Position numbers and translations under genes: made by a program
Notes under the pieces: model-generated
The model's input: only the letters and a program-made list of their open reading frames with translations
What the model was told of the DNA's origin: nothing
Databases searched by the model: none
Part shown: positions 3,940 to 48,800 of the stretch, piece after piece
How the letters are laid out: each line of letters starts with the position of its first letter
How positions within the stretch are numbered: position 1 is the stretch's first letter
Source: Yuukianura sp. NJ FZ-2021
Taxonomy: Eukaryota
Assembly (NCBI GenBank): GCA_046563655.1
Contig: CM102283.1
Location: 6,386,001 to 6,450,000, forward strand
Length of the DNA: 64,000 bases
Direction: 5' to 3'

Positions 3940-4501
3940 TTTGAAAAATCGTGGACTTCGGAATCCAAAAAACAGTATTTTCCAGAAATCAAAAATTTGG
4001 GAGCAGCGCAGTAGATGTTCTCAGTTTGGAAGTCAACAAAGGAATGAGAAGAGATGGATTGGGTTTCCTTTGTTCCAAACCCACGCATGCGCAGACATAA
4101 ATGCACGAAAGGAGTCGAATTCCTTTGTTCTGAGCAGCCAATCAGAGAAGAGCTTCTCTTTTCCAAGGTCATTGGGGACTTTTGTTGCCAGGAATGGAAT
4201 GCACGTTGTAAACACGCTGTATTTCAGTTTTCAAGGTACGCGCGTTTTTTTAAACTAAAATATTTTCAAAATTTTTGAGACATTCCTTGATATTTTTTTC
4301 TGAACTCTGAATATGACCCTAAACGTGTATAATGCCGCATGTGGCGGAAAAATTCAAACTTTTGAAATTTTTAATTTATTCAGAAATTCAATTCAGAATT
4401 TAATTAATTTTTTATGGTTACTTTTACGTGCAAATATACTTTCAATGTTTTTTAGTTATGTTGGATACTTTGAGAATTAGTTGCTGCAAAGTCGTAATGA
4501 T

Positions 4502-11200: not shown

Positions 11201-14200
11201 GAGACAACGGAGGTGGTCAGCACATTCCGAGTCAGCAGTACATTCCACTGAAATTGTTTATAAAAAATCTGTATCAACAGGATTTTTCGAAATTTTCAAA
11301 ACCATCATACTAAAATTGTGTTTTTTTTTTTTTTACAAGAATTCTTACATTTGAAGCATGTTAAGAGGGGATTTCCTGAGTATCCTTCTCGGCAGGCTGA
11401 TTTTAAAAAAAGTTTTAAAATTAGTACAAAATTTTTGAATTAGGCCCATTTTTTGTATGGAAATACAATGTTAAGCTTACTACAAGTCGGAAAATGATTC
11501 AAAACTCTGCAATTGCTGTTTTCACCACAGTTGCAAGGATCTTGGCATCGTTGATTCACACAAGCCTCTCTTGCTGGACATTCATCATTTGAGCGACATC
11601 CTTCAATTGCTGAAAATTTTTTGGGGAAAATAAGTTTTAAACTGTTTTTTTTTTTTGAAAACTTTGAAATAGACTTACGAGTTGGAGGTGGGGTGATGTA
11701 GCGACACTCTGTTCGAGCATCACCAGTGAAACCTGCCGTTCAGTTTAAGAAAAAATTCATTGGGCATTCAAATATTATACTTAAATCTAAAATTATTTAC
11801 TCATACACAGCCCGGTATTAAAAAGTTTTAAATAGTTAAAATACAAACCTGGGGGACAACGGCAACTAGGTTGATGATTTTGAGCCAGGCAGTACGCATT
11901 TGCAGCACAAGCGTCTCTTCTGCAAGCATTCTCACATCTCTGGTTGATACAAGTTTGTTCATAGCGACAGTCGGAGTTAGCTTCACATTCAGGTCTCGGT
12001 GTTTTCACAACTTCACATCCAGGATATCCATATGGATTGCCAACAGTTCCTGGAGGACATGCACAAGAGGCACTGGTCGATCCTGACCTGGGTGTACAAA
12101 CAGCACTGGGGTCACAGAAATTCAAACAGGGGTCAACCGGCGGTCTTTCTTCTCTGCGGCAATAGGACGTAGCGTCTCCCACGAATCCTGGTGGACAAGA
12201 GCATGTTGCCACGTGATATCGGACGGCACACAAAGCTCCGACCCCACAAGGAGTTTTGAGACAAGGATCGACGCATTTGTTTTCGGAACATGCGCGAGTA
12301 AAGTCACAGTCTTCGTTTGTAACACACTCCGGGCGGCTGGTGTAAATTTTTCAAAAATTTTTGTTTACTAAAACTGCACAAACTTCAAAAAAAATTTTTT
12401 TTGTATATTAAAACGTACCAAGATGGAGGGCTTCCGAAATAAAATGGAAGACAAGAGCAAGAGGCGTAGTCACCAACAGATCGGCATGTACTGTGTGGTC
12501 CACAGTCAGTTATTCTACATGGGTCAACTTTAACGTCAGGTCGAGGTGTTGGCTGGACTATTTGAGTACATCGAACTTCTGGCTGCCCAGTGTATCCTTG
12601 GATACCTACAGAAAATGACGGGAAAAATTCAAAAAGTTCATAAATTTTGAAATTTTAGCTATTTTACAAAAAACAAAACTTACAGAAACATCTTGGAATG
12701 TGATTGGCAGTTCGACACAAAGCGTTTTCTCCACAGAATCCTGCCTGGCTACATCCATCTCTGCATTTGAATCCATTGCAAATCTGATCACTTCGACACT
12801 GTTGATTGACAGTACTAAAAAAATGAAAATGTAGAAAAATGTAGATGTTTATATAACGACAAATTACTTAAACTTGAACTAAAATGAAAACATTGTAATA
12901 GTGGCAATTCGAGAAAAAAATAGTTTAAAACCTTTGCTTAAAACCAGGGTTGGGTGGTTTTTGGTTTTTTTAAAATAAAAACCAAAAAAAAACCCTGATT
13001 TTTGGTTTAAATCAGGTTTTTTAATGGTTTAAATGAAAAGTGGGTTTTTATCCAAAATAGTGTGCTAAAGGTGTATTTTAGTTAAAATATTGTAAATAGT
13101 GTAGTTACTTTGTCCACTTCTGACTAAAATTTGACAACTAAAGGGAAAAAACTGTTAAATAGAACAAAGAGCATCATAATATAACACAACAATTTGCATG
13201 GACAGTTTCTGCACAGTTCTGGACAGTTTCTGCACAGTTCTGGACAGTTTCTGCACAGTTCTGGACAGTTTCTGCACAGTTCTGTCTGTCTGTACAGTTT
13301 CTGCAGTCCACAGTTCTGGACTAAAACATTTGACAACATGGTGTAAAGAGAGAAAATTTTTAACTTTTTGTTAAATAGAACAAAGAGCCTACTAAATTTT
13401 TAACGTTTTGGAATTTGGAATATAAAAAAGATTGATTTTCCTACTAAATTTTTAATTTGCACGGACAGTTTCTGCACAGTTCTGGACAGTTTCTGTACAG
13501 CTCGGGACAGTTTCCGCACAGTTCTGGACAGTTTCTGAACATTTCTGGACAGTTTCCGCACAGTTCTGGACAGTTTCTGCAGTTTTGGACAGTTTCTGGA
13601 AGTTCTGGAATTAGTTATTTAAAAAGATTGTTCTGGACTAAATTTAGGAATTTGGAATTATGTTATTTAAAAAGATTGATTTTCCTACTAAATTTTTAAC
13701 GTTTTGGAATTTGGAATTATGTTATTTAAAAAGATTGATTTTCCTACTAAATTTTTAACTTTTTGGAATTTGGAATTATGCTATTTAGAAAGAGTGATTT
13801 TCCTACTAAATTTTTAACTTTTTGGAATTTGGAATTATGCTATTTAGAAAGAGTGATATTCCTACTAAATTTTTAACTTTTTGGAATTATGCTATTTAGA
13901 AAGAGTGATTTTCCTACTAAATTTTTAACTTTTTGGAATTTGGAATTATGCTATTTAGAAAGAGTGATTTTCCTACTAAATTTTTAACTTTTTGGAATTT
14001 GGAATTATGCTATTTAGAAAGAGTGATTTTCCTACTAAATTTTTAACTTTTTGGAATTTGGAATTATGCTATTTAGAAAGAGTGATTTTCCTACTAAATT
14101 TTTAACGTTTTGGAATTTGGAATTATGTTATTTAAAAAGATTGATTTTCCTACTAAATTTTTAACTTTTTGGAATTTGGAATTATGTTATTTAAAAAGAT

Positions 14201-17200
14201 TGATTTTCCTACTAAATTTTTAACGTTTTGGAGTTTGGAATTATGTTATTTAACAAGATTGATTTTTCTACTAAATTTTTAACGTCTTGGAATTTGGAAT
14301 TATGTTATTTAAAAAGATTGATTTTCCTACTAAATTTTTAACTTTTTGGAATTTGATAATTTTGCTCAGACTTTTTAACACCAGAGACTTTAGCAATTTT
14401 GCTCAACGCTGCTTAAATTGTGACCAGGACGATTGAACGGGTGTGGGGCGGAGCCCCAGCAAGCTTTGCGCAGCAAAGCTTTTGGTGTTCTATTTACCTT
14501 GAATTTAAACCAGGTTTTTATTTAAAAAAAAAAACACTTGGTTTAAACCATGGTTTAAATCACTGGTTTAAATCAATTGGTTTAAACCAGCCAACCCTGC
14601 TTAAAACTCCTTTGAAATATTACGAGATTACCATTCCGGTTGACATCCAAGTCTTGCATCTCCAAAGTAGTCGGGCAAACATGAGCCTTAAAAGAAAATA
14701 GTTTTTAATTAATAACAAAATATTAAATATTGATTAGGTACTATTTTGGCAGTTTTTGTACTAACAAGATGCAACTCCATTGTGTTCCTTGCAAATGGCA
14801 TTTGATCCGCAAGGATTCGGCTGACAAGGTTGAGTTTTGGTCGGGGGTGGAGGTGGTGGAACGCATTCGACGAAAGCATTTCCGACTAAACCAGGGTTAC
14901 AGAAGCAGTTCGGTCTGTGCGAAATTGTTCGACACTGAGCTCCTCGACCACATAATCCAGGGCACTGAAATTAAAAAAATGCATAGTTTGAAAGTTATTT
15001 TGAAAAGTTTTAAAAATATTCAACTTTTGAAATCGTTCAACTTACAGGGTCAACACATTTGTTGTTTCGACAGTTTAGGTTGCTGGCACAATCTTGGTCA
15101 ATGGTGCATTCTGCCCGGCCTAGAGTTGTAAAATTGACAAATTAAAATTGACTAATTCAAATTTGAAACTAACAAAAAATTTATGCTATTACAGTATGGC
15201 ACTTGTCCAAAGTATCCCGGGCGACATTGACAAACACAAACTCCGCCTCGATCTTGGCAATCCGCATTGTCTCCTCCAGGAAATGGGTCACATGGATTTT
15301 TTCGGATTTCAGGTTTCACTGGTGGTGGTGGCTCGTAACAACGACTGAACGGGTCTCCAATAAGCGGTGCTGGACAACTGCATAGCGGAGAGTGTCTGAT
15401 GACCCGACATTCGGCTCCTATTCCACACTGGACTCTTGGACACGGGTCAACGCAACGCTGTTCAATACAAGCTTTGTCTGACGAGCACTCGGGATTGGAT
15501 AAGCACTAAAATTAACAAACAATCAATAATTTTTTGGATTTAAGTTGATTTTTTTTTACCTAGAATTCAATTTTCTGCTTTTGCTAGGAGTCAAATGTCG
15601 TATTACTTACCTCTGGTCTACAGTTTGGAGGACTTCCGATGTAAGTGGCCATACAGGAACAAGATGCTGCGTTATTAACAACTCTACAAAGACTGTAAGG
15701 TCCACATGGATTTGGAACGCAGGGGTCCTGTTGTGGTGGTGGACGTTCTGGAATTCTGTAGCACCCTTGGAATGGATTTCCCGTCATTCCTGGTGCGCAT
15801 GTACAGTATGGAGCATGGTTTCGAACTGAGCAAATTGCAGAGATTCCACAAACTCCGGGACACTGTTGACAAAAAATTGAAAATAAAAAACAAATTTCCA
15901 AAATTAAAATTTATATAAATTCAACTAATTCAAAAATAAGCTGTAAACCGGATGTACACAAGTAGCGACGGACAGACAGACAGACAGGCAATGCTTAAGC
16001 ATATCGTAGGTTTTGCTATTTTGCTGCTCTACTTACCGGATCTCCACACTTGTTTCCATAACATGCTTTTTCTTGAGGACAGTCATCGTTCGTTTCGCAT
16101 TCCGGCAAGCATGCGACATACGGATCACCTCTCTGGAATTCCGGCAAACATATACATGCACCCACTCCATTTCTATTTTCACATCGACTGTTTCTTCCAC
16201 AAGGTGACGGATTGCATGGATCCACTTTAACTGGTGGTGGTGGTGGCAAATTACATCCGAAGCTAGCGTCTCCCACATAGCCATCTTTACAAAAGCACTG
16301 TGGAATGTGATTGGACACATAACAGTTAGCATTGTACCCACAGAATCCTGGACACGGATCTCTACATTTCTCTTGGACGCAAGCCTTGTCGTAGTTACAA
16401 TCAGCAGAAATCATGCACTCTGCAAAATAAACGACATAAACGTTTATATAACGACAAATAAAATATTTACTAAAGTAACGTCAATTAAAATTAAAATTTG
16501 TAATACCGGGGTGGCAACTAGAGTGAAAAAATAGTTTTAAAATTTGTTTTTAAAAACCCCTTAAAAAGTGTAGTTTGAGGAAATGCCTTTAGATTAAGAA
16601 ATCTCATTTTTCTTCAAGCCTCTGTGTCACTTTCAGTGTCAAAGGTAGCAACGGAGTCCAGCTTTTTTACGAAGTCGAAGTCGATATGGAGATTCGAATA
16701 CCAATCTCCATACACTTTGTCCCGGTTGTGTACCCATTCCTCTCGTTCGCAGTCAGTTTGATTTGTACAAAATATGTATTTGCGACCCAACTTTTCGGCT
16801 GCGGTAAACTCGAATTGCCGATTGAGTATCTCAAACTTCTTTGACGGCAGATGTTCTGGATCGTTTTCAACATTTCAAGAACGTACTTGGTAAAATATCT
16901 CACAAGCTGACGCCAATTTCATGTTGCTCTCTAGTCCACTACCAGCAAACTGAATATACTTTACTACGAAGCATGACCAGTGTGGATCCGCGATCAATTT
17001 GCCGAGTTCTGTCTTGAAATTTCCGTTGCTGTATCTTTCGAAGTGATGACGTGAGACCAATTCTGAACGGTTGCGTCTCATTCTTCCAACGTACCACTTA
17101 AGTGGAATAGAAGCGTCCTTCAGAGCTGCCATTAATTCAGCAGCAGTGGCGTTCCGGCTTTGCAGACACAGAACGAAGTAAACCTGCACAGAACCGTCGT

Positions 17201-20200
17201 CGGTTGTTCTGCTTTTTTCCACCTTAGGAAGTTCACTTGCCATTGACAATAACAAAGTCTTTTTTTCGGCAGTGGATGATTTTCTGGAAGATGTTCTACC
17301 ATAACCAATTTTTTGGTTGGACATTGCTCTCAGGTGAGCACAGTTTCTAAAATCAAAGAAAATTAACCCTGCTAAAAAGTACTAATGAATGCATAAATCA
17401 TATAAATGAAGTGAAACTTACAAGGCATTTGGGTTTCTATTGTGAATTCTGGTCTTGTGCCCTGTGAGCGAAGTTGAAGTGGCAAAAGTCGCGCTACATT
17501 CGCTGCACGCAAACGTCTTCTTGGAAGCAATATCTTTTTCAGTCTTCTTGGCTCTAGATTCACGTTGTTGCTCGTTGCTGGAACAAAAAGAATTTCCATA
17601 TTTGCTTGCAACTCAAAATTGCAATTGACTTTGACTAATTAATTGCTGAATCAGATGATAAACAATAACAAACTTACTGCACTGCCTTCAAGTTGGGTGT
17701 TCCATGTTGGTAAATAACATGAGAGTAAATGGCGGAGTAAATTGCCGGTTCCTTTTTGTCTCTAATGCATTCGACCGCATTACAACAGTATAAAAACTGG
17801 TCTTTACGTTTCGGATTCCTCACTTTGCTCTTTGTCATCCAAAACTTAACGTCGGTCTTTTTGTCTGGCGGACGCCGTTGGGCCTAAGATTATTAAAAAA
17901 ACGATTAAGAATAACATGACAGGGTGTAGTACTAGCTAACTACTTATTTCACTTACACTGGTTCCAAACTGAAACCGCGATGTGGAGGGTTGAGGTTCTG
18001 GTTGACCAACCACGTCCTCAGGAACAGCACTATCCCCATCATCGTCCTATCGAAATAGTTCAAATTGGAAATCAGTGAATGATTGTGTGTGATTATTAGT
18101 GATGGAAGACATTACTTGTACATAACAGTTACTTACTGATGATAAGGTGACAACTGCGGATTCCGACATGTCGTCGTCATCTCCACCACACACATCGTCA
18201 CTGCCTACGGATTCTTGTTCCTCCATCTTGAATGAGGTCAATCGATCTCCAGTTGCCTCACTTTTACTCAGTAAGTTGCACAGAACGACAGAACAAACGA
18301 CAGACTTGACAAAAGAAAACAATCTCTGTTTGTTGTTTTTGGATCTATCTCCCTTCCAAATATGGACAACCAAAATAATAGTTTAAAACTTAAATTATTT
18401 GCTCAGCCCGGCATTAAAATGTTTTAAATAATTAAAATAAGGAAATTTTTAGTTATAATTATCGTATAATTTAAAATAGATGAAGACAATAAGATTACCT
18501 GGTCGACAGAACGGAGGATTTCCAAAGGTATAGCCAGGTAGACAGCTACAAACTGCCACTTCGTTCACAACAGTACAAGTGCTGTATGGTCCACAATTGG
18601 CCAAGGCACAAGGATCCCTCCTAGCTGGAATTTCTGGAACAACGATTGGATAGCAACTGTAGAATGGATCTCCCGTCATTCCAGCAGAGCAAGTACAAAT
18701 GGCCGAGTGGGAAATTACTTTGCATTGGGCAGTAGGTGAGCATGCGCCGATGCAAGGATCCAAGCATTTGTTTCTTACACAGGCTTTGTTTTGAGCACAG
18801 TCCGCGTTGGTATAGCATTCTGGACGGCATGGGGTATCCGGAGGCGATCCGAAATAGTCTCGAATACACCGACAAACTGCTACGCCATTTCGGTCACTAC
18901 ATTCTGCATTTGGTCCGCATGGATTTGGATAACAGGGTTGGCTCGGCAGAGGTTCCGGAATGATTCGGATTTGAGTACATCCTGAAAATGGGTTCCCTTC
19001 ATACCCTGTATTACAGGAGCAAGATGCAACGTGATTGGTTACTGAGCATCGGGCGTTGTGACCACAAAGTCCTGGACATGGATCGGTACATTTGTTTCTG
19101 CTACAAACTTTAGTTGTAGGACAATCTTCGTTTAGGCTGCACTCAGGTCTGCACCCAGTATATGGATCTCCGAAAAATTCTCCAAGGCATGTGCATGCTC
19201 CAACACCGTTTCGTTCTGTACAAGCAGCATTCGGTCCACATGGAGACGGGAAGCATGGATTCGGAGGCGGGGTAGGCTGGACACGGATCTCGACACATCC
19301 AGAACTGTATGGATCGCCTTCATAGCGATCATTACAGTAGCACTGTGGCATGTGACTCTTGACAAGACAGTAGGCGTTGAAACTGCATGTTCCTGGACAT
19401 GGATCTTCACAACGTTGTCGTACACAGGCTTTTGTCATTGGACAATCTTGGTGCACCAAACACTAAAATTAACAAATTAATTTGATTAATTAAGGCGATT
19501 TTTTCATTCCTTGTCACATTTACTTACCTCTGGTCTGCAGTTGGGTGGTCGTCCAATGTAGCCTACACGGCAGGAACATGTAGCCGAATCACCGAATCGC
19601 CGACATTCAGCATATTCGCCACAATCCAAACATGGGTCACGTGGAATTGGAATTATTGGTTCTGGTTTTCGTACTTCCTGAATACATGCTTGAAATGGAT
19701 TTCCGACCAAAGGATATGGACAACTACAGAGTGGATTGTGGTTGATGACTCTGCAAACGGCTCCCACGCCACACTGGGCTCTCGGACATGGATCTTCACA
19801 TCGCTGGTTGATACAACTTTTAGTCAGGTCACAATCGTTGTTAATAACGCATTCTGCACATTTAAACGACATTAATGTTTATATAACGACAAATAAAATA
19901 TTTACTAAAGTAACGTCAATTAAAATTAAAGTTTGTAATACCGGGGCGACATGCTGGTGGAGAACCGATGTACTCCTTTTGGCATGCGCAAATGGCAACT
20001 CCGTTTTCATTTCGACAAGTACTGTATGGACCGCAAGGTGACGGGAAACATGGATCTTGTGGAGCTGGTGTCGGTATAGGTTCTGCAGCTAAAGTTAAAA
20101 ACAAAAGTGTTTAAAAAAAATCAACAAAATGTACCGGAAAATGCTTTATTTTTTTGAAAAGTTGAAAAAAAATGAAACAGTAACATACGGATTCGATAGC

Positions 20201-23200
20201 ATCCGGAGAAGGCGTTTCCAGTAAAACCTGTGTCACATTGGCACTGCGGCGCATGATTCAGGACGTAGCATGACGCTTGAAATCCACACACCCCTGGACA
20301 TGGATCTTGACATTTGTTTTGAATACAAGCTTTGTTTGAAGCACATTCTTCATTGACTTCGCATTCCCTTCTACAGCCAGTATATGGATCCCCAAATGGA
20401 TATCCTTTTTCACATGTGCATGATCCAGCACCATTTCGTTCTCGGCAAACAGCGTTGTAAGCACAAGGATTCGGTGAGCAGACATTGATCGGTTCAATAC
20501 GTTCTGTTGAAAACAAAAATCAAAAAATGTAAATAAAAATTACTTAAAAAAGTGTTACAGTCGAACCCCTAATTGCGCAACACGCTTTGATTGGTTCGTT
20601 TGACTAAAATCTTTTCCCGGCTGCACCGTACGGTTTCAAATTCTAACGCTTCTACACAGATTAGGCCAGATAGAGCGTTTTTTGTCGTGTTTACATGTTA
20701 CAAAAGACTGAGCTAAAAGTTGCAAAATGAGAGGTTCGTCTGTATTTTGGATTTGGAGTTTTTGAATTTTTGAGTTTACGCGGTGGTTTATTGCAATAAG
20801 AGTATGCGTCTCCTGTAAATCCTTCCAGGCAATAGCAGTTTCCTCGATGATTGATTGCTCTACATTCGGCAGAAATTCCACAGCGACCGTCAGCACACGC
20901 GTCACGACATTTTTGATTGACACAGTTTTGTGTCGTGAGACAATCAGCATCAATTGTGCACTCTGCACAAATAGAACATTAGATTAAATGAATTCTGTAC
21001 TTAAACTTCAATTAAAATTACAACATTCTAATACCGGGGTGGCAATTGGAGTGAAAAATAGTTAAAACTTAAATTATTTGCTCAGCCCGGCATTAAAAAG
21101 TTTTAAATAATTAAAATATAGAAATTTTTAGTTATAATTATCGCATAATTTAAAATAGATGAAGACAATAAGATTACCTGGTCGGCAGAAAGGAGGTTTC
21201 CCTACGTAATCCTTCCAGCACGTACAAATTGCCAAATCGTTTTGATTGGTACAGTCTGCGTAGGGGCCACAAGGAGTCGGAATACAAGGATTTGGTTTTG
21301 GTGTTTCAATTCTCAGCGGTTTCTCACAGGCTCTGAATGGATCTCCAGTGTAACCTAAAAATAGCAGCAGCATCAGCATTTTAGCGGCTTTTCTTTCAAG
21401 TTTCTAGTTTAGCCTAAATACAGACCAAGATCACAGGCGCAGTTGGGACTGTGGTTGATGACTCTGCAACTGGCAAAATGGCCACACTGTGTTGTGAGAC
21501 ATGGGTCAACACACTTCTGGTTTATGCAGGCCTTGTCCAGTGGACATTCTGAGGAGGAAACACATTCTGGTCGGCTAACAATATAAAAAACATCGGTACA
21601 TGAGGTTTTCATGTATTTTTTTTTCAAATGTATGATTTTGGTTTTTAATTTAGAAATACAAATTCAGTACTTACCAAGATGGAGGACTTCCGACATAATT
21701 TGGCAGGCAACTACAAGAAGCAACTCCGTTCGTATCACGACATGAGCTGAATGGTCCGCATGGAGAAGGATAGCAAGGACGCGGTGTAACTTGTTCTGGT
21801 AAAGGTGGAGCTGTGAGTTCAAAATTTCAAAAATTATTTCAGGAAAAAAAATGAAAAAATGAAAGATCAGCAATGTTAAATTTTGGCCAAATTATTTCTG
21901 TCTACTGCGTAGCTACTGCATACTCCGCATTTACAATACAAGAATGACGCGTTCAGCAAAAAACCTTAAATCGTCGACAGAAGCAGCTGCAAAAATCAAA
22001 TGCCCGCAACGCATGCGCATCAGTATTTAGCGAAAGTGCGAAAATCGAAGTCTACTTATATTTTCTACTCGACTTAAAAATTATTTTTAGTAAAAGGTAG
22101 ACTCAAATAAGCCAAACTGCAGCAAGTCTCCAGATGAAAAGAACAAAAGATGCTGAAGAAGTGTTCCTGAAAAAACTAAAAAGCTCGAGTTAAAATTATG
22201 TTAAGTTTTGAGCAATTTACGAGCAGTGATTTCATAAATATGAGAATGAGCAGTGATATTTTTTAAAAATGCAGCAATTCTTACGCAGACGGATCAAATG
22301 ACAACTAGAATATGGATCTCCAGTAAAACCTGTAAATTCATTTATAGAAATTCTCCAATTAGTGAAACCCGTCATTAAATTATAGAAATTCTCCAGCGTA
22401 GTGTGTTACCCAGAACGCAGTCGCAAGTAGCAAAGTGATTTCGGACAGTACATGTTGCTTGGTAACCGCAAACTCCAGGACAAGGATCCACACACTTATT
22501 CCGAACACAGGCAAGGAGTGGTGAACATTCATCGTTCAGTGTGCTATATAAAAATTGATGTTTACATAAAAGACAAATTATAATATTTAATTCAACTTCA
22601 ACTAAGTTTAGAACACTTTAATACCGGGGTGGCGAATGGAGTGAAAAAATAGTTAAAACTTAAATTATTTGCTCACACTCCGGTATTAAAAAGTTTCAAA
22701 GGCTAATTATAATATGGATTTTAGACTATAATTGTAGCATAGTTTAAAATAGAATAAGAAGGTTACCATTCAGGCCGACAGCCTTGATACTGAAAATTTA
22801 AAAAAAAATGTAATTCAACGTGACCTTCGACCTTTACATTTTAACAGTGGCTTGGCAAATGTTGTAAATTGAGTTTACCGGGTCTCCGAAAAATTCTGGG
22901 AGGCAGCTACACGCTCCAACTCCATTTTGAGCTTCACATCTAGCATTTTGTCCACAAGGAAAGGGGTCACAGGGGTCATTGGGAACGGGAGGAGGAATTC
23001 TGGTAGGAGGGGGTTCGCATCCGCGTATGGCGTCACCAACAAAGTTTTCGAGGCAGTAGCAAGATGGATTGTGATTCACTGTTCGGCAACCGGCATTGTA
23101 TCCGCAACTTCCTGGGCACTACACAAGAATAACGGGGTTGAAAATTGACTGTGACCTTTGACCTCTGAATTTTTTTTCAAAATTCAGAATTAACTTACAG

Positions 23201-33789: not shown

Positions 33790-33823
<34 letters not shown>

Positions 33824-36800: not shown

Positions 36801-39800
36801 CTGTATGGCCCACAAGCTAAGAATAAAAAAAATGCATAAATTAAATTCAAATGCATAAAAATTTTCAAACATATTTTTTTAATCGTGAAAACGAATAATT
36901 TTGTTTACGAGATGGGAAGCATGGATCTGTTGGTTCAGGCGGTGGAAGTCTAATTTCGACACAGTTGTAAAACGGGTCTCCAGTAAACTGCAGTATAGGC
37001 ATTACAAAGTTGTAAATAATTAAAATATAGAAATTTTCAGCTATACCAAGTGTGGCATAATTTAAAACAGAATAAGAAATATTATATTACCGTTGGAGGG
37101 CACTGGCACAAAGGACTGTGATTGCTCACTTTACAAATGGCCGTAGGTGGACACGGTCCTGGACATGGGTCAACGCACTTTTGGTTTCTACAAGCTTTGC
37201 TACAAAATATAAACCAAATAATTTTAGTACACTATTTAATTTTTAAATATATTATTTAAATGTTGGTTTCTGTGTTTACTATTTACCTGAGGTCACATTC
37301 ACCATTGGTCAAGCACTCTGGAGAACAGTTAGGTGGACTACCCCTGTAATCTGGTAGACAAGTACAAACTGCAACGCCATTTCGATCCAAACATTTTGAA
37401 AACGGACCACATGGATTTGGTTCACAAACTCTCAACGGTATAACTTCTGGCTCAAATTTGTGACATCCAGTAAATGGCTGTCCGGTGTATCCCGGTATAC
37501 CTAGATGAATACATTCAAGTAGTAATTTAATGTTCGAAGATTCATAAATTAGCATATCCATAATGAAGTCTTACAAACACAAGATGGGATGTGGTTGGAC
37601 ACACGACATTCGGCATTCGGACCACAAAGGCCTGGACATGGATCGATACATTTGTTTCGGTTGCAAGTTTTTGTGTTCGGACAATCTTGGTTCACTGTTT
37701 CGAAACAAACTCAAATTGACTGAAGTTATTTAAACATACGTTAAAATATTTTTAATAAATTATAATTTAGTTATGATTAAGTTAGTTAACGTACGAGTAC
37801 ATTCCGGTTGGCAAGCTGTGTAGGGATCTCCCTGAAAATCCAATATAGGAATTTAAAAGAATTATAAATTAAATAGATTAATTAGAATTAAAAACTTGTA
37901 ATACCGGGGGTGGCAATTCGAGTAAAAACAAACACTTCAAAAAATCTTTCCTTTAAACCCCTTAAGTGTATTTTTTTTAGTAAAAGCCTTTTTTTTTAGA
38001 ATTTTGAAGCATTAAGCTTCCTTCAATCGTCGTTTTTGTCACTTTCAGCATAATTTAAAATAGAACAAGAAATATTACATTACAAACCTGAAAATCTGGT
38101 AAACATGTGCATGCCCCAATTTCTCCTCGTTCTTCACACCGTGCATTTAGGCCGCAAGCTAAAACAAAAAGTACAGTATTACTAAAATGTTAAGTCATTT
38201 TTATGTCATATTGTATTTCATTTTATATTATTAGTTAATGTATCATAATTTTAGGGCTTAACATACGACTTGGATTGCAAGGCATCAGCGGTGGAGCAAT
38301 TTTCGGTATTGGGAAGCATGAAGTGAATGGATCCCCTGTGGACGGAAATTAAAAGAAATGTAACGACAAAACAAATCTTTAAACTTCAATTAAAATTAAA
38401 ACATTCTAAATACTGATGGGGCAATTCGAATGAAAAATAGTTAAATCTTAAATTATTTGCTCACAACTTGGTATTAGAAAGTTTTAAATAAGTAAAATAT
38501 AAAATATAGTTATGATTGTCGCATAATTTAAAATAGAATAAGAAATATTAACATTACATTACCTGTGTAATGGTCCAAGCATCGGCACACCGGTCTGTGG
38601 TTGATGGTATTGCAAAGAGCATTTTCTCCACAAGCAGAAATACAAGGATCACGACACTTTTCTCGAAGACAGGCCAAGTTACTTGGGCAGTCCGAGTTAT
38701 CTGTTCAGTAAATTCAGAAAAGAGTTGTGAAAAAACTAAAATTTTGAAAAATAAATCACAGAGTACTTGCCAATGCATTCGGGTCTACAATTCGGTGGAG
38801 ATCCAATTTTTCCTTCCTCGCACGAACAGAAATACTGATCATTCCTTGTAACACATCGTGCATGTAAACCGCATGGAGCTTTCAGGCATGGATCAACCCT
38901 GACATCCGTGTCATGTCCAACGACTGGTGGATTTGGAACACATCTCGTGAAAGGGTCCCCGGTATGATCAACGGGGCAGCTACAGATTGCACTGTGTTGT
39001 AGTACATGGCATCTGGCCAACGGAGCACAGGCAGCATCCAGACATGGATCGACGCATTTTTCATTACGGCAGGCTTTGTCAAGCGGACATTCAGAACTTG
39101 ACGTACACTCTTAAAAAAAGACATAGATGTTAATATAACGACGACTAAAATATTTACTAAAACGTCAATTAAAATGAAAACATTCTAATGCCGCGGGGTG
39201 GCACTTCGAGATATTAAAAGGCATTAAAAAGTTTTAAATAATTAAAATATAGAAATTCTTCATTACCGCTGCCGGGCAACTACAGATTGCACTGTGTTGT
39301 AGTACGTGACATCTTGCCAACGGAGCACAGGCAGCATCCAGGCATGGATCGACACATTTTTCGTTCCGGCAGGCTTTGTCCAGCGGACATTCAGAACTAG
39401 ACGTGCACTCAGGCTTACAAAACGGTGGATCTCCCACATATCCGATTTTACATGTGCACACTGCAACGTCGTTTACGTTTCGACAAGAGCTGTATGGCCC
39501 GCAAACTGGTCCTCTACAAGGATCTTGAGGAATTACTGGCGGAGGTGGAATTCTGGTACAACCAATGGCAGCATTCCCGGTGTAACCAGCTTGACAAGCT
39601 ATTCAGCACAAAATCAATTAATTTAGTACAATGTTAATTAATACAAATTATATTAAGTTAATAAAAGTGACTTACTGCAGAGCGAGGCGTGGTTTCGAAC
39701 AGAGCATTCACTATTTGTGCCGCAAGAACCGATGCAAGGATCTTTGCATTTGTTGGCGACACAAGCTCGGTCATAGGGACAGTCAGAATTTTGCAAGCAC

Positions 39801-42800
39801 TCCGGTCTGAAGCATTTCAATATGTTTGTAATAAGTTAATTTAATTAGGATTAAGAATTAATTATGGTATGTCACGGGAATTATTTAAAACAAAGGGTAT
39901 TATTTGGAATTTTACGGTACCTGCAGCCAGTTCTAGCATCTCCATAGTAATCCTTCAAGCAAATGCAGCTTCCAGCTCCGTTCCGTTCGACACAATTTGC
40001 ATTGGCTCCACATGGACTTGGTGGACCACAAGGTGAAATCGGTTTCTCGGTGACGACGTCAATTCGTTTCGGTTCTTCAACGCAGTCTCGGAATGGATCG
40101 CCCGTAAAACCTAACGTTACAGAGATCCAGGAAAATATACATGGTGTGGTACGGTTGAACATGTACACAGGCCAAATTATAATCCAGGCAAAATATAATC
40201 CAAATATATCAACTAACCGGGTAGACATGTACACAATGCTACATGTTGAGTTGTACGACAGTGAGCATTGGTTCCACACGCACCGACACAAGGATCAGTA
40301 CATTTGTAGTTGTTACAAGCTTTGTTTGTGGGGCAGTCTGGGTTAATGGAGCATTCTAGACGTTTGAAAGACATAGATGTTTATATAACAAGTAAAACCT
40401 TTACTAAAACATCAATTAAAATTGAAACAATGTAATACCCGGACGGCAATTTGGTGGGAAACCGACATAGCCCTCCAGGCAACTACATGTACCCTGCTCA
40501 TTGTGAACGCGACAACGACTGAACGGGCCTAAAATGAATTTAAAATGCTTAAAATTTTTCTAAATATTTTGAAATTTGGCAGCGAAATGGCTTACCACAT
40601 GGAGATGGAGAACATGGGTCAACTGGTGGAGCAGGAATGCGAACGCAAGCTACAAATGGATTTCCACTCATGTCTTGCGGGCATGTACAGATTGGCGAAT
40701 GGTTGAGAACACGACAAATTGCATTCTGGGCACATGGAGTTGGACATGGGTTGACACATCGCATGTTGTCGCAGGTTTTGTCCAACGGACAGCCAGAGTT
40801 GGTCACACACTCAGCGACACAGTTCGGTGGGCTTCCTTGGTAGTTCGGTAGACAAGAACAGGTCGCAACTCCGTTTAGAACTCGGCATTGGCTGTTGAGG
40901 CCACAGGCTAAAATTTTTCCGGAAAAAAAAACTTTAACAAATACTGATTCTTCTAAAAAAAATCTTTGCGTTGGTCTTACGCGACGGTGAGCATGGATCT
41001 GTCGGTTGGGGTGGCGGAATGCGGAAACATGATCTCAATGGTTCTCCAGTAAAGTTCGGAAGGCAAGTACACACTGGAACGTGGTTTCGTACTTGACACT
41101 GCGCATTAGCTCCACATGCTCCGTCACTGCATGGATTCTTACATTTTTGACGAAAGCAAGCCTTGTCATGAGGACAATCAGTGTTCAACACGCTGTAAAT
41201 GTAGATGTTTATAAAAAAAAGACAAATTACAATATTTAACTTGGATTAAAACTAAAATGTTCTGATACCGGGGTGGCAATTAGACTGAAAAAATAGTTGA
41301 AACTTAAATTATTTGCTCACAACCCGGTATTAAAAAGTTTTAAATAATTAAAATATAGAAATTAATTTTTAGTTATAATTTAGTAATAATTATCGAATAA
41401 TTTACATTACCATTCTGGACGGCATGCAATTTCGGGATTTCCGCTATGTTCTGGAATGCAAATGCAGACGGCTACTCCTCCTCGGTCTTCACATACTGCG
41501 TTGATCCCACATTGATGCTGGTAACATCCGTCTTTACGGACGTCAGGTTCAACGGGGATGGGTTTGCAGGAAGTAAACGGATCGCCTAAAAAGTTTTGGG
41601 TTGGTAATTTTACTGAAAAGGTCAACGTAATTAGTAGCTCGATTTTTGATCTCTACGGCAAGCTCTTCCTCAAAACCTTCAATTCTTGTTAAAGTACTAA
41701 CTTCACTAGTTGCAATTTGTTCTACCGAATTAAATCCCGTTACCGATAAATCCTTCGTTGCAGTAACAATTCGTCACATGATTGATGATGCGACAGTAGG
41801 CTTGGAATCCACAAGGTGCATTGCCAACACAAGTATCCGTACATTTTTCGTTGACGCAAACACGATCATTCGGACAGTCTTCATGGATCTGGCTAAAATG
41901 GAAATATAAAAAAATGTAGATGTTTAATAACGCCAAATTATAAGATTTACTTCAACTTCAACTAAAACATTCTACCGGGGTAAAATATTTATTCGAGGAA
42001 AAAATAGTTAAAACTTAGCTTGTTAGCTAACTCCCCGGTATTAAAAACTTTCAAAGGCTAATTATAATATGTACTTTAGACTATAATTGTCGCATAATTT
42101 AAAATAGAAGAAGAAAATAACCTTACCATTCTGGTCGGCACTGATCATTTGCAACATAAATGTAAAACAAAAAATTTATGGAATGAATTTTCTTCAGAGT
42201 CCTTAAAAACTTTTTTTTTGAACAAATTGTGATCATGCTGTGTATAACTTACGTTTGGTGGTGCACCAAAATATCCCCTTTTACAAGTACAAATCGCCCG
42301 CGTATTTTCAACTCGACATTCTCCATAAATACCGCAAGGGTCTCCTCGGCACGGTTCGACTCGTTCCGGACGCTCTGTATCAACAATGAACAATGGAATA
42401 ATTTTACTATAAACTGCATTAAAAATATATAACTGAAATCATTAATTTTTACCTGTGACGACGATAATTGAGCAGCGCGTCAGTGGATCACCGGTAAAAC
42501 CTGGCGTTACAGAGATTTAGGAAATTTAGATGATTAACGTCAAATACAATACTTTACTATATCGCCAATTAAAATGAAAACATATTGTAATACCGGGCTT
42601 GCAATTCAAGTGAAAAAGTCCTAAAAATATAGAAATTACCAGGTTGGCAGTAGCACATTGGAGAGTGATTGACAACTCTACACTTGGCAGTGGATGCGCA
42701 GACTCCTGGACAAGGATCCACGCATTTGAAGTTCCTACAAGCCTTGTCTATCGCACATTCAGAATTTGAAGTACTGTAGAAGTACATGTAAAAAAATGTA

Positions 42801-45800
42801 AACGTTTATATAACGACAAAGCATAATATTCAACTAAATTGAAAACATTTATAATCAGAACAAGACATGTTACATTACCATTCGGCAGAGCAGTGTGGTG
42901 GTGATCCTGGAAAATGAAATATTCAGTTGTAAATTGTAAAAATTGAAAATCCGAAATCAAATTTTAAAATAAGTTAAAAGGTCAAACGTCAGATTTTACC
43001 GATGTAGTTTTTGAGGCAAGAACAAATTGGAACCCCATTTTTGACTATACACTGACTGTAAGGACCGCATGGGCTTGGAGAGCACAAATCCTGCGGAACT
43101 GGGGTCAAAGTTCGACGACATCCTTGCAATGGGTCCCCCTGGACGTATATAGAAATTCTGGTTATCATTTTGAACGCAACTATCTAGAATGTAATTAATT
43201 ACCTGGAAGCCTTCAGGGCAGTAGCAAGACGGTATGTGATTGTAAGTTTTGCAGAGAGCTCCGTTTCCACAAGTTCCAACGCAAGGATCGATACATTTGT
43301 TGTTGAAGCAAGCTTGGTTCAGTGGACAGTCTGAGTTGTGGATGCATTCGACACGACAGAGTAAATATGGGTCTCCTTCAAATGGTGCGATGCAGTGACA
43401 TGTCGCCACGTCTCCGTTGGGACGACATTCGGCATTGGCTGCACAGGGTGACGGATTGCAAGGGTCAACTATCACTGGCGGTTGGATTTTGGTGCACATT
43501 GTCAAAGAGTCTCCACGAAATCCAGCTTGGCAAATGCAAACTGCAATGTGGTTGTAGACGTGGCAAATGGCATTGACTCCACAAACATTCCCAATACACG
43601 GGTCAACACATCTTTCTTGGACACAAGCTCGGTTGTTTGGACAGTCATCGTTGATGCGACATTCGGGACGACAGAAGGGCGGTACGCCTATTAAAACATA
43701 TTTGAATTAATACCTTAAACACATTTGGTATATTTATGGTACCCTAAATCCTCGCCTATAACGCATGCGATATTTCAGATAACAAAATGTTTAGGGTGGA
43801 AAACTTCTTTTTTTTGAATTTCTTAAATTCTTAAATTTTCGAAATTAAGAGATTTCTAGGTCACGTAATATGCATGCTGGGTATAGATAGATCTAATTCT
43901 TATTTAAAATTTAATCATGGACAAAGGAACAAATTATATTGTACGCGAATGTGAGGTATATTCGAGGATTTAGGGTAACCCAATCTACTTTACTGGGAAC
44001 TTTACCATAATATCCTGTGTCGCATGTACAAACTGCGTTGGACCCTTCAGTACGGCAAGAAGCGTACATTCCACATGGATTTGGATTGCATGGCAAGTAA
44101 GGCGCTGGAGTTCGAATTTGGTCAGGAACTACTTGGCAGAAACGTTCCGGATTTCCTGTAAGTCCTGGAGGGCAACTACAGTACGGAACGTGATGTCGGA
44201 CGTAGCATTGTGCACCTTGACCACACCTTCCTCGACATGGATCATCACATTTGTACTGAATACACGCTTGATTTATACCACAGTCCGAATCGACAATACT
44301 AAAATAGAATAAGAAATATTAAAATAAATGTATATAAATAGATATAAATAATTTTAAAATAGATAAGAAGTATTACCATTCCGGCTGACAGTTTGGTGGT
44401 GCTCCCACATAGCCTGCGAGGCAGGCACAGACTACTCCGGAGTTTCTGATTGAGCAAGACGAGTAAGGTCCACATGGGGATGGTTGACACGAAGGGGTGG
44501 GTGGGGGAAGATATGGGGGTGGTGTGGGAGTTACACGTTGAGGGGGGTATGGTGGGGTGGGTCGTGGGGAAACAGGGGGTGGGAGGTAGTCGATGGGAGT
44601 CCGTTTGATACAGATTTGCAAAGGAGATCCGAAGTAGTCCTGCGGCAAATAATAACGACAAATAAAATCTTTACCGAAACTTCAATTAAAATGAAAATAT
44701 TCTAAAACGGGGTGGCAATTCCAGAGAAATATTAGCTAAAAGCCTCTTTAGAATAGTAATGTCTCTGAGGAAAGGTCTTTTTTTTTTAATTCAATGATTT
44801 CGCTAATCCACTCCTCGTTTTAAATAATTAAAATATGGGAATTACCGGCGGGCAGTAGCAAATTGGCTGATGATTTTCTACTCGGCAGAGAGCTTTTTCT
44901 CCACAAACTTGGCCATTTCGACAAGGGTCCTCGCATTTGTACTCGTAGCAAGCCAAATGTCGTGGACAATCGGAGTTCAGAATACATTCTAAAAATTTTT
45001 TACATGTTTATATAACGTCAAATTATAATATATACTTAAACTTCAATTCAAATTAAAACATTGAGGCTGGCAGCCTGATTTAAAAAAAATCGAAAATTAT
45101 AAAATTTTGAAACCTACGATTAGTTTCTGAACGAAGAGATTTTTTTTTACCTAAGTTTGGATTTCCATAGTAGTTTTTGATACATTCGCATCGATAAGCT
45201 CCTGCTCCCAAATCAGTACAGATGGCGTTATTTCCACAGGGATTTTGATCACAGAGTTTGCGCGGTGGTAAGTAAGGAGCAGCAGTCGTAGGTTGAATAA
45301 CTACAAATAATTTTGATAATTGATTCAATTTTTTGTCATCATTTCAAAAACTTTCAATAAACAACATGTTTCGATGTAATCTTTCTTACTTTGTTTTCGG
45401 AAGCACATTTTATATGGATCGCCTTCATAATTTTCAACACATGTACAAACTGGCCGATGTTGAACTGAATAAAATAATGGAGAATTATTTGTTTACATGC
45501 GGAATAACAAATTTTTGGTGAAAATTTTGAAAGTTAACTCACCAACTTCACATCTAGAATTGATTCCGCAAGCAGAAATGCAGGGGTCAGTACATCGGAA
45601 ACTGATACAAGCTCGATTTAGTGGACATTCGGAGTTTCTTTGACTAAAATAAAATAGATAAATAATGTAAAATTTTTACTTAAACTTCAATTAAGATGAA
45701 AACATTGTAATAGCGGGGTGGCAATTCGAGGAAAGAATAGTTAAAACTTAAATCATTTGCTCACAGCCCGGTATTAAGAAAGTTTAAATAATTAAAATAT

Positions 45801-48800
45801 AGAAATTTTATGTTATAATTATCGCATAGTTTAAAATAGAATAAGAAATATTGCATTTACCATTCAGGTTGACATGGTGAGTAGCCGTAGGATCCAGTAC
45901 AGGCACACATCGACACGCCCGGTTCGTATAGACTCAACTCTCCATTGCCCCTGCAAGGCTGCCTTGGCTGTTCGATGACCTCTGCGGAGGTCAATTCAGG
46001 TCAAAATTCAAAACAAATGGAATACAAAAACATTTTTTTTACATATATACAAATCTTACTTGGATAACAGGCGAATTGAGGATGGCCATAGAATCCCTGC
46101 GGACACTGACATGTCACGACATGGTTAGTACAAGTACAACTTGCTCCCTTGCCACAAGATGCAGGACAAGGGTCAACACAGCGAAGTGCATCGCAAACTC
46201 TACTAGACGGACAATCACTATCCAGAAGACATGCAGGCCTACAGCCTTTCGATGGATCCGAACTCAGAAAGCCGGGATTGCAAGTACAGATTTCGTTTCG
46301 TCCAGAAGGGGTACATCGCGTATTTGGTCCACAAGATGGAGGTTGACATGGTGACTTCTCAATAGGTTGCGGAAGAATTACATCAAAACAGCGGTCATAA
46401 GGATTTCCTGATAGTCCGTTTGGACAGACACAAACAGGACGACGCAGCTCGTGGCGACATTCGGCTCGAAAACCACAAGCACCAATACATGGATTGATAC
46501 ACTTCTGCCTGAGGCAAGTCTTCGTCTGCGGACAGTCGGAGTCTGACTGACATTCTGGGATTAAAAGAAATATACATGTTTATATAACGTCAAATTATAA
46601 TATTTACTTAAACTTCAATTCAAATTAAAACATTCTAAGACCGTGGTGGCAAGTCGAGTGAAAAATATAGTTAAAACTTAAATTACCTGCTCACATTCCC
46701 GGTTTTGAAAAGTTTTAAATAATTAGAATACGGAAATATTTAGTTATAATTGTCGCGTAAATTAAAATAGAATAATAAGAAATACTACATTACCAGGTTG
46801 GCATCCAGTTGTACTAACTGGTGACCCCTTCATTCCCGTTGGACAAACACAAACGGCCTGGTTTCGCTCTTCGTAGCAACGTGCTCCAGGGCCACACGGA
46901 CTTGGTTCACAGGGTGAACGAACTTCTCGGCAGCCTTCATACTAAAAAAAATTCAAAAGTTTAATCTTTAATTTGAATGATTTTAATTGTGACCTAACCA
47001 AATGAATCGAATTATAAGTTTAAGTGAGTTTAATTATAAGTTTAATTATAAGTTTACGAAATCTTCTATCTTTAGTCTTTAAGTTTCATCCAAGTGTTTA
47101 TTAATTAAGGTGTGGAATTAAACTCAAAAGAGAAAATAAAAAAAAAAGTTTAAGTGAGTTGGAACAAAAGTGAAATTTTTTTCTTCATTTTCAAAAAGTC
47201 AAAAATAGCAAAGTCCAAAGACTTGCAAAGGAAGGACTCTTTCCACCAAAAAAATTTTTTTTTTGCATAAAACATTTGGAAATGGCTTAAAACGTCCTAA
47301 AAAGTGACTATGAAAAAAAAAATTCGAACAACGTTAAAATTTTTTTTTCCGGATCCGAAAAATTGTGGTGGGTTTAGTTTGGAAGTTTCAAAAAAAATTA
47401 TATTTAACTTACTCCGTTTCCAGTAAACCCCGGCTTGCACGTACAAACTTCTTGATTAGAGACAACTGAACACAGCGAATTCGGACCACACAGGCCGGGT
47501 TGACAAAATCGTCGTGTCGGCGGTGCACATCGATGATACGGATTTCCAACAGTTCCAGCCGGACCTATATTTATATAACACTTGAAGATAAAATTAATGC
47601 GTTCATAATTAATTTAACATTTAAATATTTACAGTAACATGGTGGAGACCGTGTAGTGTCACAAACAGCTCCCGCCGCGCATGGATTTGGTTCGCAAATG
47701 TTGACAACTTCAGCTGGTTTGCAGTAAGGTGGTGACCCTGTGTATCCTTTCAAGCAAGAGCAAACCGGTCTTCCGCCTGAAACCATGCATTCGGAATTCG
47801 GACCACATGGATTCGGTGAGCACAGTTTTCCTTGTGGCACTAAAGTTAATTAACATTAATAATTAACTAATTTCTTGTATTTACATCTTTAATAATTCAC
47901 AAATGAAAGTCACTATACCTCTGCAGCCAATCATGGGATCTCCTTCAAAGTATTCTGGACAACGACATACAGGTCGATGACCTCTGACCTCACACATGGC
48001 ATCTACTCCACAACGACACGGATTGACGCATCTTCGCTGAACACAGGCTTCGCTATCTGCGCATTCGCTGTCACTCCGACATCCCTCTGCACTTATTCCT
48101 TAAATTCAACATCGGACATGTACATTTTAAATCAAAATTTTGTTTCAAAAAGTGCAAAAAGCAAAAAAATTATGGCTGCAGATTATTTAACAAATTTTTA
48201 CGTTTTCTTGTGCAACCAATGTAAGCATTTCCCTCGAATCCATTCAAACACTGACACTTGGCGGCTCTGGAGTTAAAAACAATAAAATGTAAAGCATTTT
48301 AAAATATTTTTTATAATATGTTATAATATTTCCGGCGAATTTTTTTTAGTACCGATTGATCACGTAGCATTCCGAGTTGTCTCCACATGAGTCCGTTGAA
48401 CATGGCGACCGACATACACGGTTGAGGCGGTCACAGAAAAGATGAGGTGGGCAGTCTTGGTTGTACTGACAAACCGACGTCTGGCTGGGCGTCCTTTGAC
48501 ATCCATAGCTGGGACTGCTGTCCAATCCGTCCTTGCCTACAAATCACACATTAAATGTGTCACATTACCCCACAAATGATAGGGTAAAGGTCAAAGGTCA
48601 ACGTACATCGGCAAAGAGCTGCATGGTTAGCTCCATAGCAAACTTCGTGTGAACCACACGGGTCTCGGACGGAACAAACTTTGCTACATTTTTGGTTCAG
48701 GCACACTTCGTCATCTCCGCACTCATAGTCCCTTCGACATCCAACTAAAAAAGTACAAAGTGAGCAAAAAGTCATTAACTTAAGAAACAGTATAGAATGA

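Follow-up and report, generated by a model that had tools for sequence, protein, structure and literature searches.

The repeat array and its exon model

The 64,000-nucleotide stretch of contig CM102283.1 of Yuukianura sp. NJ FZ-2021 analysed here (hereafter, the window) carries on its minus strand a long repeat gene in which about a quarter of the introns of the repeat array (~26/92) form a single sequence family, and it is this family whose history we examine. By its Pfam matches, the minus strand of the window is the DPY-EGF repeat array of an orthologue of dumpy, a giant apical matrix protein of arthropods, since Dumpy_DPY, EGF_3 and ZP-C are all matched in minus-strand frames. Cysteine-rich open frames occupy this strand from ~8 kb to ~53 kb, and a 321-aa piece of them contains both Dumpy_DPY (E 2.5e-21; 75.7 bits vs. 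a cut-off of 27; 3 stretches) and EGF_3 (E 3.4e-15). DPY modules alternate with EGF modules, and the modelled protein holds 83 domains recognized by the unit profile described below. The C-terminal zona pellucida domain (ZP-C) is matched in the open reading frame (ORF) at 7377-7913 (E 2.2e-11), while a hydrophobic stretch in ORF 6721-7065, judged by eye, is a putative membrane anchor. The gene thus extends past both ends of our model, with ZP-C and the putative membrane segment on one side and EGF-like ORFs reaching ~53.2 kb on the other. Two JGI environmental proteins resemble the ZP ORF of the window (89% and 73% identity in a 'near' homologue search), and the 89%-identical one, P0001, is encoded on an 11,064-nt contig that represents the 3' end of a close relative's dumpy gene in public metagenome data; a homologue search with the same ORF at the 'longer' setting gave no match. 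An earlier note on this DNA had placed the introns in a DPY module. This label holds insofar as the array consists of DPY-EGF units, but Pfam restricts the DPY module proper to the PEC...DPC part.

The exon model was produced by frame-aware GT-AG dynamic programming on the minus strand and then curated: 8 spurious mini-exons were taken out of two long introns, and four changes were made by hand from a reading of the DNA (two small exons added, one GC-AG intron and one donor). The resulting coding sequence of 25,122 nt is without a stop, and the introns, with a median length of 85 nt, comprise 112 GT-AG and 1 GC-AG. This only GC-AG intron of the model (38701-38770, minus strand, donor G/GCAAGT, where a slash marks a junction) is required to read PECI/DNSDCP. 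A repeat-unit profile of ~107 residues (107 columns) was made from nine uninterrupted units, and each intron was placed on it, its position being written as column and phase (e.g. c1p1).

8003..50556 (-): modelled part of the dumpy gene; 114 exons, 113 introns, 8,374-codon open frame
11476..46926 (-): DPY-EGF repeat array of ~107-residue units; 92 introns in 35 column/phase classes, 28 given to the family

One intron family at eight positions

The family profile was built from 8 full-length copies (215-239 nt) that can be aligned end to end. Applied to the whole window with nhmmer, it finds 22 introns at E<=1.4e-4. The 23 significant minus-strand matches lie in these 22 introns, all in the sense of the gene and all within array introns between 11.7 and 46.8 kb, and the three significant plus-strand matches are mirror images of palindromic copies. 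Elsewhere in the 64 kb the best values are E 2.6 and 8.5, and we find no copy outside the array.

The element itself is ~220 nt long and consists of its own GTAAT donor, a 5' block, an imperfect palindrome with two arms of ~70-80 nt each around a spacer of ~45 nt, a 3' block, and a pyrimidine tail followed by AG. Family sequence begins at the donor in every copy. A GTAAT start occurs in 15/28 family introns vs. 2/85 others, and the exon base at -1 is G in 28/28 vs. 39/85. The 6-14 nt after the GT vary in both sequence and length among copies, and the conserved 5' block follows. Half of the copies are internal-deletion derivatives of 76-116 nt, which is near the median intron length of the gene; they retain the left arm only, the right arm only, or the outer parts joined. 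Two further copies hold nested insertions. Retention of any of the 28 candidates is predicted to bring at least 2 in-frame stops, and the frame is open only with their removal. The candidates are as follows.

46555..46793 (-): full length, 239 nt, c1p1; nhmmer E 1.1e-51; one of the 8 profile sequences
45644..45860 (-): full length, 217 nt, c2p2
44989..45150 (-): right arm only plus an unrelated 5' part, 162 nt, c1p1; nhmmer E 2.1e-5; not in the list of the earlier note
44640..44845 (-): shortened left arm, spacer and right arm, 206 nt, c47p0 (PP/DY); nhmmer E 2.5e-10
44299..44376 (-): short derivative, 78 nt, c2p2; linked by BLAST only
42774..42878 (-): 5' end and right arm, 105 nt, c2p2; profile E 0.19, BLAST-linked
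42501..42639 (-): left-arm stub, spacer end and right arm, 139 nt, c47p1; nhmmer E 1.2e-6; next to a 48-nt exon, 42453-42500
41893..42126 (-): full length, 234 nt, c2p2; an older intron ends 14 nt upstream (microexon 42127-42140)
41193..41410 (-): near full length, 218 nt, c2p2
40356..40438 (-): right arm only, 83 nt, c1p1; nhmmer E 4e-6, the match extending 21 nt into the exon; donor is the central GT (GTATTAC)
40111..40217 (-): doubtful, 107 nt, c47p1; only the 3' tail in common with 42501 and 36398 (by eye), no profile or BLAST support
39108..39266 (-): chimeric, 159 nt, c2p0; nhmmer E 5e-15
38336..38562 (-): full length, 227 nt, c50p1 (in G.xGDP, at the second Gly); 79-84% identity to c1p1 and c48p0 copies
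37832..38087 (-): full length, diverged, 256 nt, c98p0 (FQ/GDP); nhmmer E 2.8e-8; 10-nt direct repeat across the junctions; alternative in-frame donor 9 nt downstream
36988..37090 (-): left arm only, 103 nt, c48p0 (PPT/F); nhmmer E 3e-12
36398..36497 (-): right arm only, 100 nt, c47p1, donor GTATTAC; profile E 0.8, BLAST-linked
35918..35995 (-): short derivative, 78 nt, c2p2; profile E 0.11, BLAST-linked
34727..34951 (-): full length with the best-preserved hairpin, 225 nt, c2p2; nhmmer E 1.7e-57; 12 nt after an older intron (microexon 34952-34963)
33226..33310 (-): right arm only, 85 nt, c1p1; last 11 exon bases equal to the element centre; CHP where the consensus is CRP
27753..27828 (-): left arm only, 76 nt, c2p2; nhmmer E 2.6e-8; missing from the ~95%-identical units at 32487 and 30124
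25387..25471 (-): inner-deletion derivative, 85 nt, c2p2; nhmmer E 5.9e-5; left-arm variant as in 27828-27753; follows microexon 25472-25487
22544..22766 (-): full length, 223 nt, c2p2
22330..22409 (-): doubtful, 80 nt, c47p1; no profile or BLAST support; next to a 45-nt exon, 22285-22329
20963..21177 (-): full length, 215 nt, c1p1
19854..19941 (-): right arm only, 88 nt, c1p1; nhmmer E 1.4e-4; right arm near that of 18498-16420 (by eye)
16420..18498 (-): full length, split in the spacer by a nested insertion of ~1.85 kb, 2,079 nt, c1p1; nhmmer E 1e-26 left, 3.6e-11 right
12815..14631 (-): family sequence (spacer and right arm) confined to the 3' end, other repeats elsewhere, 1,817 nt, c2p2; nhmmer E 3.4e-14
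11733..11848 (-): inner left arm and spacer, 116 nt, c47p1; nhmmer E 2.6e-11; 7-nt direct repeat across the junctions

Placed on the unit profile, these introns occupy 8 codon/phase positions in three clusters. At c1p1, in the Glu of xPEC, there are 7 family introns (six listed in the earlier note, plus 44989), and at c2p2, in the Cys, there are 11. One each is found at c47p0 (44640), c48p0 (36988), c50p1 (38336), c98p0 (37832) and c2p0 (the chimeric 39266-39108), while c47p1 has three (11733, 36398, 42501) and two doubtful ones (40111, 22330). The earlier note had claimed at least seven occupied positions, which is borne out, and each of its 24 coordinates coincides with the acceptor G that ends an intron of our model (24/24). 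Its grouping of the positions at two motifs needs revision to three clusters, because 37832 sits at column 98, at another copy of the motif in the second EGF of the unit. The clustering itself is stronger than expected by chance, with 9 pairs of positions <=10 nt apart vs. 1.76 expected (P = 5e-4; 100,000 random draws). No non-family intron is found at either c1p1 or c2p2, which together hold 18 family introns. The xCRPECxx boundary is also dense in unrelated introns, and ~10 different positions fall within ~25 nt around it.

The earlier note had asked whether the introns at its second motif align significantly with the family, and most do: five of these seven are significant by profile independently. 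For 38336, membership is based on 79-84% identity to other copies, and its E-value is not counted because it is itself one of the 8 profile sequences, which would be circular. The remaining one, 36398, is weak by profile (E 0.8) yet linked to the family by BLAST. In other collections, Rfam yields no family at gathering score anywhere in the window, and a 27-nt left-arm motif finds 0 viral contigs. A 20-nt motif from the element centre finds 4 metagenome loci and 1 locus in a bacterial metagenome-assembled genome; these were rejected as motif-only matches without profile support beyond the motif and in unrelated coding context.

In the best copy (34727-34951), the palindrome folds into a hairpin of -47.8 kcal/mol (z -3.9), and 0/200 shuffles are as stable. 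The hairpin was dropped as a general property of the family, since most copies are no more stable than shuffles. Direct repeats across the junctions reach 10, 7 and 6 nt in 3/28 family introns and are of 1 nt in 17/28; non-family introns also reach 6 nt. The 10-nt and 7-nt repeats were entertained as target-site duplications (TSDs) and downgraded, because they resemble the acceptor or donor consensus and because a variant start, GTTTGTA, is common to two copies.

The two nested insertions have features of their own. The one in the spacer of the c1p1 intron (~16540-18375) is flanked by a direct repeat of ~10 nt and has ORFs on the same strand, of which ORF 17418-17612 encodes a C2H2 zinc finger (Pfam zf-C2H2_6, E 4e-7). 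The insert at 12945-14600, within intron 14631-12815, has inverted-repeat ends (e.g. 12965-12983 vs. 14513-14531, 95% complementary) and contains a 59-nt tandem array (13 copies, 13525-14471) along with 21-nt repeats (13170-13610).

Intron likeness and the divergence of repeat units

If the family had been multiplied by duplication of the repeat units, its likeness should follow that of the exons, and the non-family introns provide the baseline for this comparison. Non-family introns at the same position match one another by BLAST in 5/13 pairs when the flanking exons are >=75% identical and in 0/72 pairs when they are <75% identical; at different positions, 3/2,060 pairs match. Family introns, by contrast, match in 51/86 same-position pairs in which all flanking exons are <75% identical, and in 136/292 pairs at different positions. 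Their likeness is 83-84% at different positions and 84-85.5% at the same position. Over 129 family pairs, mean intron identity is 73.5% vs. 53.6% for the flanking exons (profile columns; 240 nt of coding flank), with the intron value above the exon value in 128/129 pairs and r = -0.13. Individual same-position pairs show 84% intron vs. 52.5% exon identity, 84% vs. 57%, and 85.5% vs. 63%. In a tree of the 13 longest copies, which is star-like, those at c1p1 and at c2p2 are interspersed. Since the likeness within the family is independent of both position and exon divergence and the tree is star-like, these comparisons indicate that the family spread after the repeat units had diverged. The claim in the earlier note that duplication of a single ancestral intron fails as an explanation is therefore upheld, by the positions, by a likeness of 83-85.5% regardless of position, by the pair counts and by the tree. 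Divergence from the family consensus is K = 0.11-0.29, with one outlier at 0.44, which at an invertebrate rate given as 4.4e-9 per site per year (PMC12130899) would place the age of the family, very roughly, at tens of millions of years.

The relation to older introns can be seen in microexons. Older introns, at positions that are also occupied in units without a family intron, precede family introns by 12-28 nt, and the exons left between them measure 12 nt (34952-34963), 14 nt (42127-42140), 16 nt (25472-25487), 23 nt (22767-22789) and 28 nt (42879-42906).

A block of four tandem super-repeats at ~24500-33250, each 2.27-2.45 kb long and composed of several DPY-EGF units, includes three copies that are 90-97% identical and one at 68-76%. 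The super-repeats differ in their introns: a non-family c104p1 intron is present in 2/4, and a family c2p2 intron in a different 2/4. At the latter site, the units at 32487 and 30124 are without the family intron, while 27751 (~95% identical in protein) and the older 25379 have it. Because the older copy has the intron too, with a variant left-arm stretch in common, the sequences indicate that the intron predates the super-repeat duplications and was later lost exactly, or removed by conversion, in two copies.

Target motif and element centre

The earlier note proposed a Cys-x-Pro-Gly/Glu-like target, imprecise repair, and conversion with sliding, and these fare differently. Both c1p1 and c47p1 are preceded by TGYNNNCCNG (Cys-x-Pro, then G), and the element centre reads TTGCCACCCCG followed by GTATTA in both palindrome arms. 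The target thus fits c1p1, c47p1 and the centre motif of the element, but c50p1 and c98p0 lack C-x-P. Imprecise repair is not borne out, as long direct repeats at junctions are found in just 2/28 introns and both are acceptor-consensus-like. As for sliding, the 1-3 nt offsets among c47p0, c47p1 and c48p0 fit either sliding or separate insertions, and we found no simple path for the 4-nt offset between c1p1 and c2p2.

The right-arm-only introns connect the target to the element in another way. The central GT serves as donor in 4/4 of them, and all four are at c1p1 or c47p1 (4/4), with 0/11 such introns among those at c2p2. At 33310, the end of the exon equals the element centre in 11/11 bases, and the unit has His at a site where ~60 others carry Arg or a different residue. 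In the simplest reading, a deletion between the exonic TGYNNNCCNG and its look-alike in the centre would have left the central GT as donor; alternatively, a right-arm intron could have undergone inverted duplication along with ~14 exon bases, giving rise to the palindrome. Either route ties the Cys-x-Pro-Gly/Glu target to the element itself.

A junction echo of the same kind as in some family introns is seen in non-family c106p2 introns (24503-24578, 26953-27028 and 31683-31752, with 29404-29480): in at least 3 of them, the last 8 bases, ATTTTCAG, resemble the upstream exon end, TTTTGCAG.

Proposed history and alternatives

On the sequence evidence above, we favor repeated insertion of one intron family into the dumpy array, with a probability of roughly 0.7. 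Once the units had diverged, whole-intron copies of the element, all of them in the sense orientation, would have entered 8 or more codon/phase positions; later unit duplications would then have carried copies along, many would have been trimmed by internal deletion to the usual size of ~85 nt, and some would have been lost exactly.

Several observations weigh against this history or temper it. The junctions of the exon model were set by frame and module continuity. The splice-site scores of family introns fall under the non-family mean, with most above the 85th percentile of all GT/AG sites, and the GTATTAC donors score poorly (66th-84th percentile among GT sites overall). Family membership is uneven, in that 4 short introns are tied to the family by BLAST only and the 2 doubtful ones by eye, through a shared 3' tail, and four BLAST-linked AT-rich introns (50131-49831, 23913-23823, 16036-15863 and 10394-10310) were excluded by judgement because they have no profile match. 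The different-position pairs in the 129-pair test set non-homologous exon flanks side by side, and it is for this reason that the same-position pairs carry the weight; the supports in the tree are modest. In folding, the median z is +0.46 for the family and +0.33 for other introns, and only the best copies beat their shuffles. The ends of the element, of which ~25-30 nt each are conserved between copies, are not mutually complementary by eye and hence are not inverted repeats, and long junction repeats occur in only 2/28 introns (10 and 7 nt), both splice-consensus-like. Finally, nhmmer finds no family copy in the other genes, non-repeat introns or intergenic DNA of the window.

The foremost competing explanation, which we consider improbable, is that one or two ancient introns were multiplied by unit duplication, shifted by sliding, and kept alike by gene conversion limited to introns. 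Common descent of some groups of copies is clear from the single 3' tail shared among c47p1 introns and another shared among the right-arm-only introns at c1p1, and 27828 and 25471 have variants in common. The offsets within clusters are just 1-4 nt, and the Gly of column 47 is replaced by D or T in units with shifted introns, as sliding would have it. Sliding, however, cannot reach positions ~45 and ~97 codons apart, and the tree does not sort the copies by position. The likeness stops at the intron borders and is unrelated to exon identity, and the non-family introns that were co-duplicated with the units have no detectable likeness below 75% exon identity (0/72).

A slightly poorer prospect still is an ordinary palindromic miniature inverted-repeat transposable element (MITE) that entered pre-existing introns, leaving old positions that have only their contents in common. 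The palindromic core would suit such an element, the nested insertions in two family introns imply that introns here take up mobile DNA, and c50p1 has a non-family intron as well, with the two doubtful ones at c47p1. Yet every copy consists of family sequence from the donor onward, with no older intron sequence 5' of it, and c1p1 and c2p2 are without non-family introns among their 18. All copies are in the sense orientation, none is found in the other introns or the intergenic DNA of the window, and microexons of 12-16 nt imply that a second intron was added beside an older one. Lastly, we consider it very improbable that errors in modelling or assembling so repetitive a gene produced the pattern. 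The junctions were picked by a program that maximises the open frame, the first pass gave 8 spurious mini-exons and 4 errors corrected by hand, and the four-super-repeat block could be misassembled, but each junction restores P-E-C or G-F-x-G-D-P without an indel, most family introns lie outside that block, and the earlier note and the exon model arrived at the same 24 junctions independently.

Under repeated insertion, the source of new copies may have been the intron itself, by reverse splicing and reverse transcription or by template-switch repair from a neighboring copy, which we place a little below even odds. Self-copying is consistent with several features: what is copied equals the intron, no copy is inverted, the exons continue exactly across the introns, and the family seems confined to one gene. 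Exact copying of the intron is harder to square with the variable 6-14 nt that follow the GT. A DNA transposon of the introner or MITE type is a weaker candidate, against which we would lean. A classical transposon with terminal inverted repeats (TIRs) is not supported by the sequence of the element, because its palindrome is internal and its ends are not inverted repeats, and because the long junction repeats (2/28) are consensus-like.

The chimeric intron may bear on the involvement of RNA. Its 5' junction follows SCPAA, as at the second motif of the earlier note, and its 3' junction precedes CTSSSEC, as at the first. A 137-nt exon segment (EC...SCP) occurs twice on the minus strand, at 38974-39110 and 39274-39410, on either side of the chimeric intron, with 92% identity between the copies. 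The one upstream continues directly from the exon before it, the way it would in spliced RNA, so that its left edge is a spliced exon-exon junction, and the downstream copy follows the chimeric intron. As a single case, intron 39266-39108 and the duplicate hint at recombination in the gene mediated by complementary DNA.

The most specific scenario that we can formulate, and as a whole a rather unlikely one, is a gene-restricted introner in a terrestrial hexapod. Here, an ordinary dumpy intron would have gained an inverted duplication that included the last ~14 exon bases, and would then have copied itself, splice sites included, to new sites of the same transcript or gene, guided by a match of TTGCCACCCCG plus GT to Cys-x-Pro-Gly/Glu codons and without a transposase.

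Comparison with known systems

The origin of new introns in animals is described as largely unknown, and elements that make introns are reported from very few animal groups. Introners are transposon-derived intron families of Micromonas, Aureococcus, dinoflagellates, some copepods and tunicates (PMC9860276, PMC11282704). Gozashti et al. 2022 report them in 175/3,325 genomes, with just two groups represented from animals and land plants combined, both of them animal (PMC9860276); Supplementary Table 4 of that study scores the springtails Folsomia candida and Orchesella cincta as 0. According to a review (PMC11282704), TSDs and TIRs are not present in all introners, and splice signals can come from the element, the TSD or the exon. 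The main text of a 2025 survey (PMC12130899) does not mention arthropods, springtails or hexapods, and our literature search found no relevant paper on introners in Collembola.

The dumpy family resembles introners in that similar introns lie at non-homologous positions, all in the sense orientation, and in that the element supplies the splice signals: judged by sequence, the conserved unit includes the GTAAT donor as well as the 3' block and tail, whichever position it occupies. It differs in that all copies seen in the 64-kb window are in the repeat array of one gene, that the ends are not inverted repeats, that TSDs are not convincing, and that the host is apparently a terrestrial hexapod. 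What is new is therefore an introner-like family in a hexapod host, apparently restricted, within these 64 kb, to one repeat gene. With ~26 related introns at 8 positions, near-identical units that are empty or filled, a graded series of deletions, and microexons, the array is a compact natural experiment that could help to tell whether introns originate by transposition, by reverse splicing or by templated repair. The array also suggests that a long repeat protein tolerates heavy intron traffic.

In Oikopleura, similar introns reportedly occur at new positions within genes, for which reverse splicing is said to have been proposed, as it has for fungal introner-like elements. As in these, the dumpy element would be copied as a whole intron with its orientation kept and no convincing TSD, and some copies are in the same gene. 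Unlike these, the dumpy family is much larger in one gene, is built around a palindromic core and includes many deletion derivatives; in both, reverse splicing is only proposed. Daphnia is said to have recent intron gains with short flanking direct repeats, attributed to repair of double-strand breaks and mostly unrelated in sequence. The dumpy gains are likewise in hotspots, and a few of them have direct repeats across their junctions (10, 7 and 6 nt), but one sequence family fills the new introns. The 'sister' stwintrons of the Hypoxylaceae are near-identical introns at new, species-specific positions (PMC12403724, PMC9024468). They share with the dumpy family the presence of sequence-similar introns at new positions, whereas stwintrons are nested twin introns found in many genes and the dumpy introns are single U2-type GT-AG introns of one animal gene.

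Neighboring genes

Outside the dumpy gene, neighboring genes were noted at 1935-2944, 3226-4020 and 4502-6028, and the profile search finds no family copy in or around them. The latter two stretches are on the minus strand, and a 508-residue ORF shows a faint F-box-like match (E 0.0046, below cut-off). At 1935-2944, on the plus strand, the exons resemble, by eye, a serine/threonine phosphatase of the PP2A/PP4 type.

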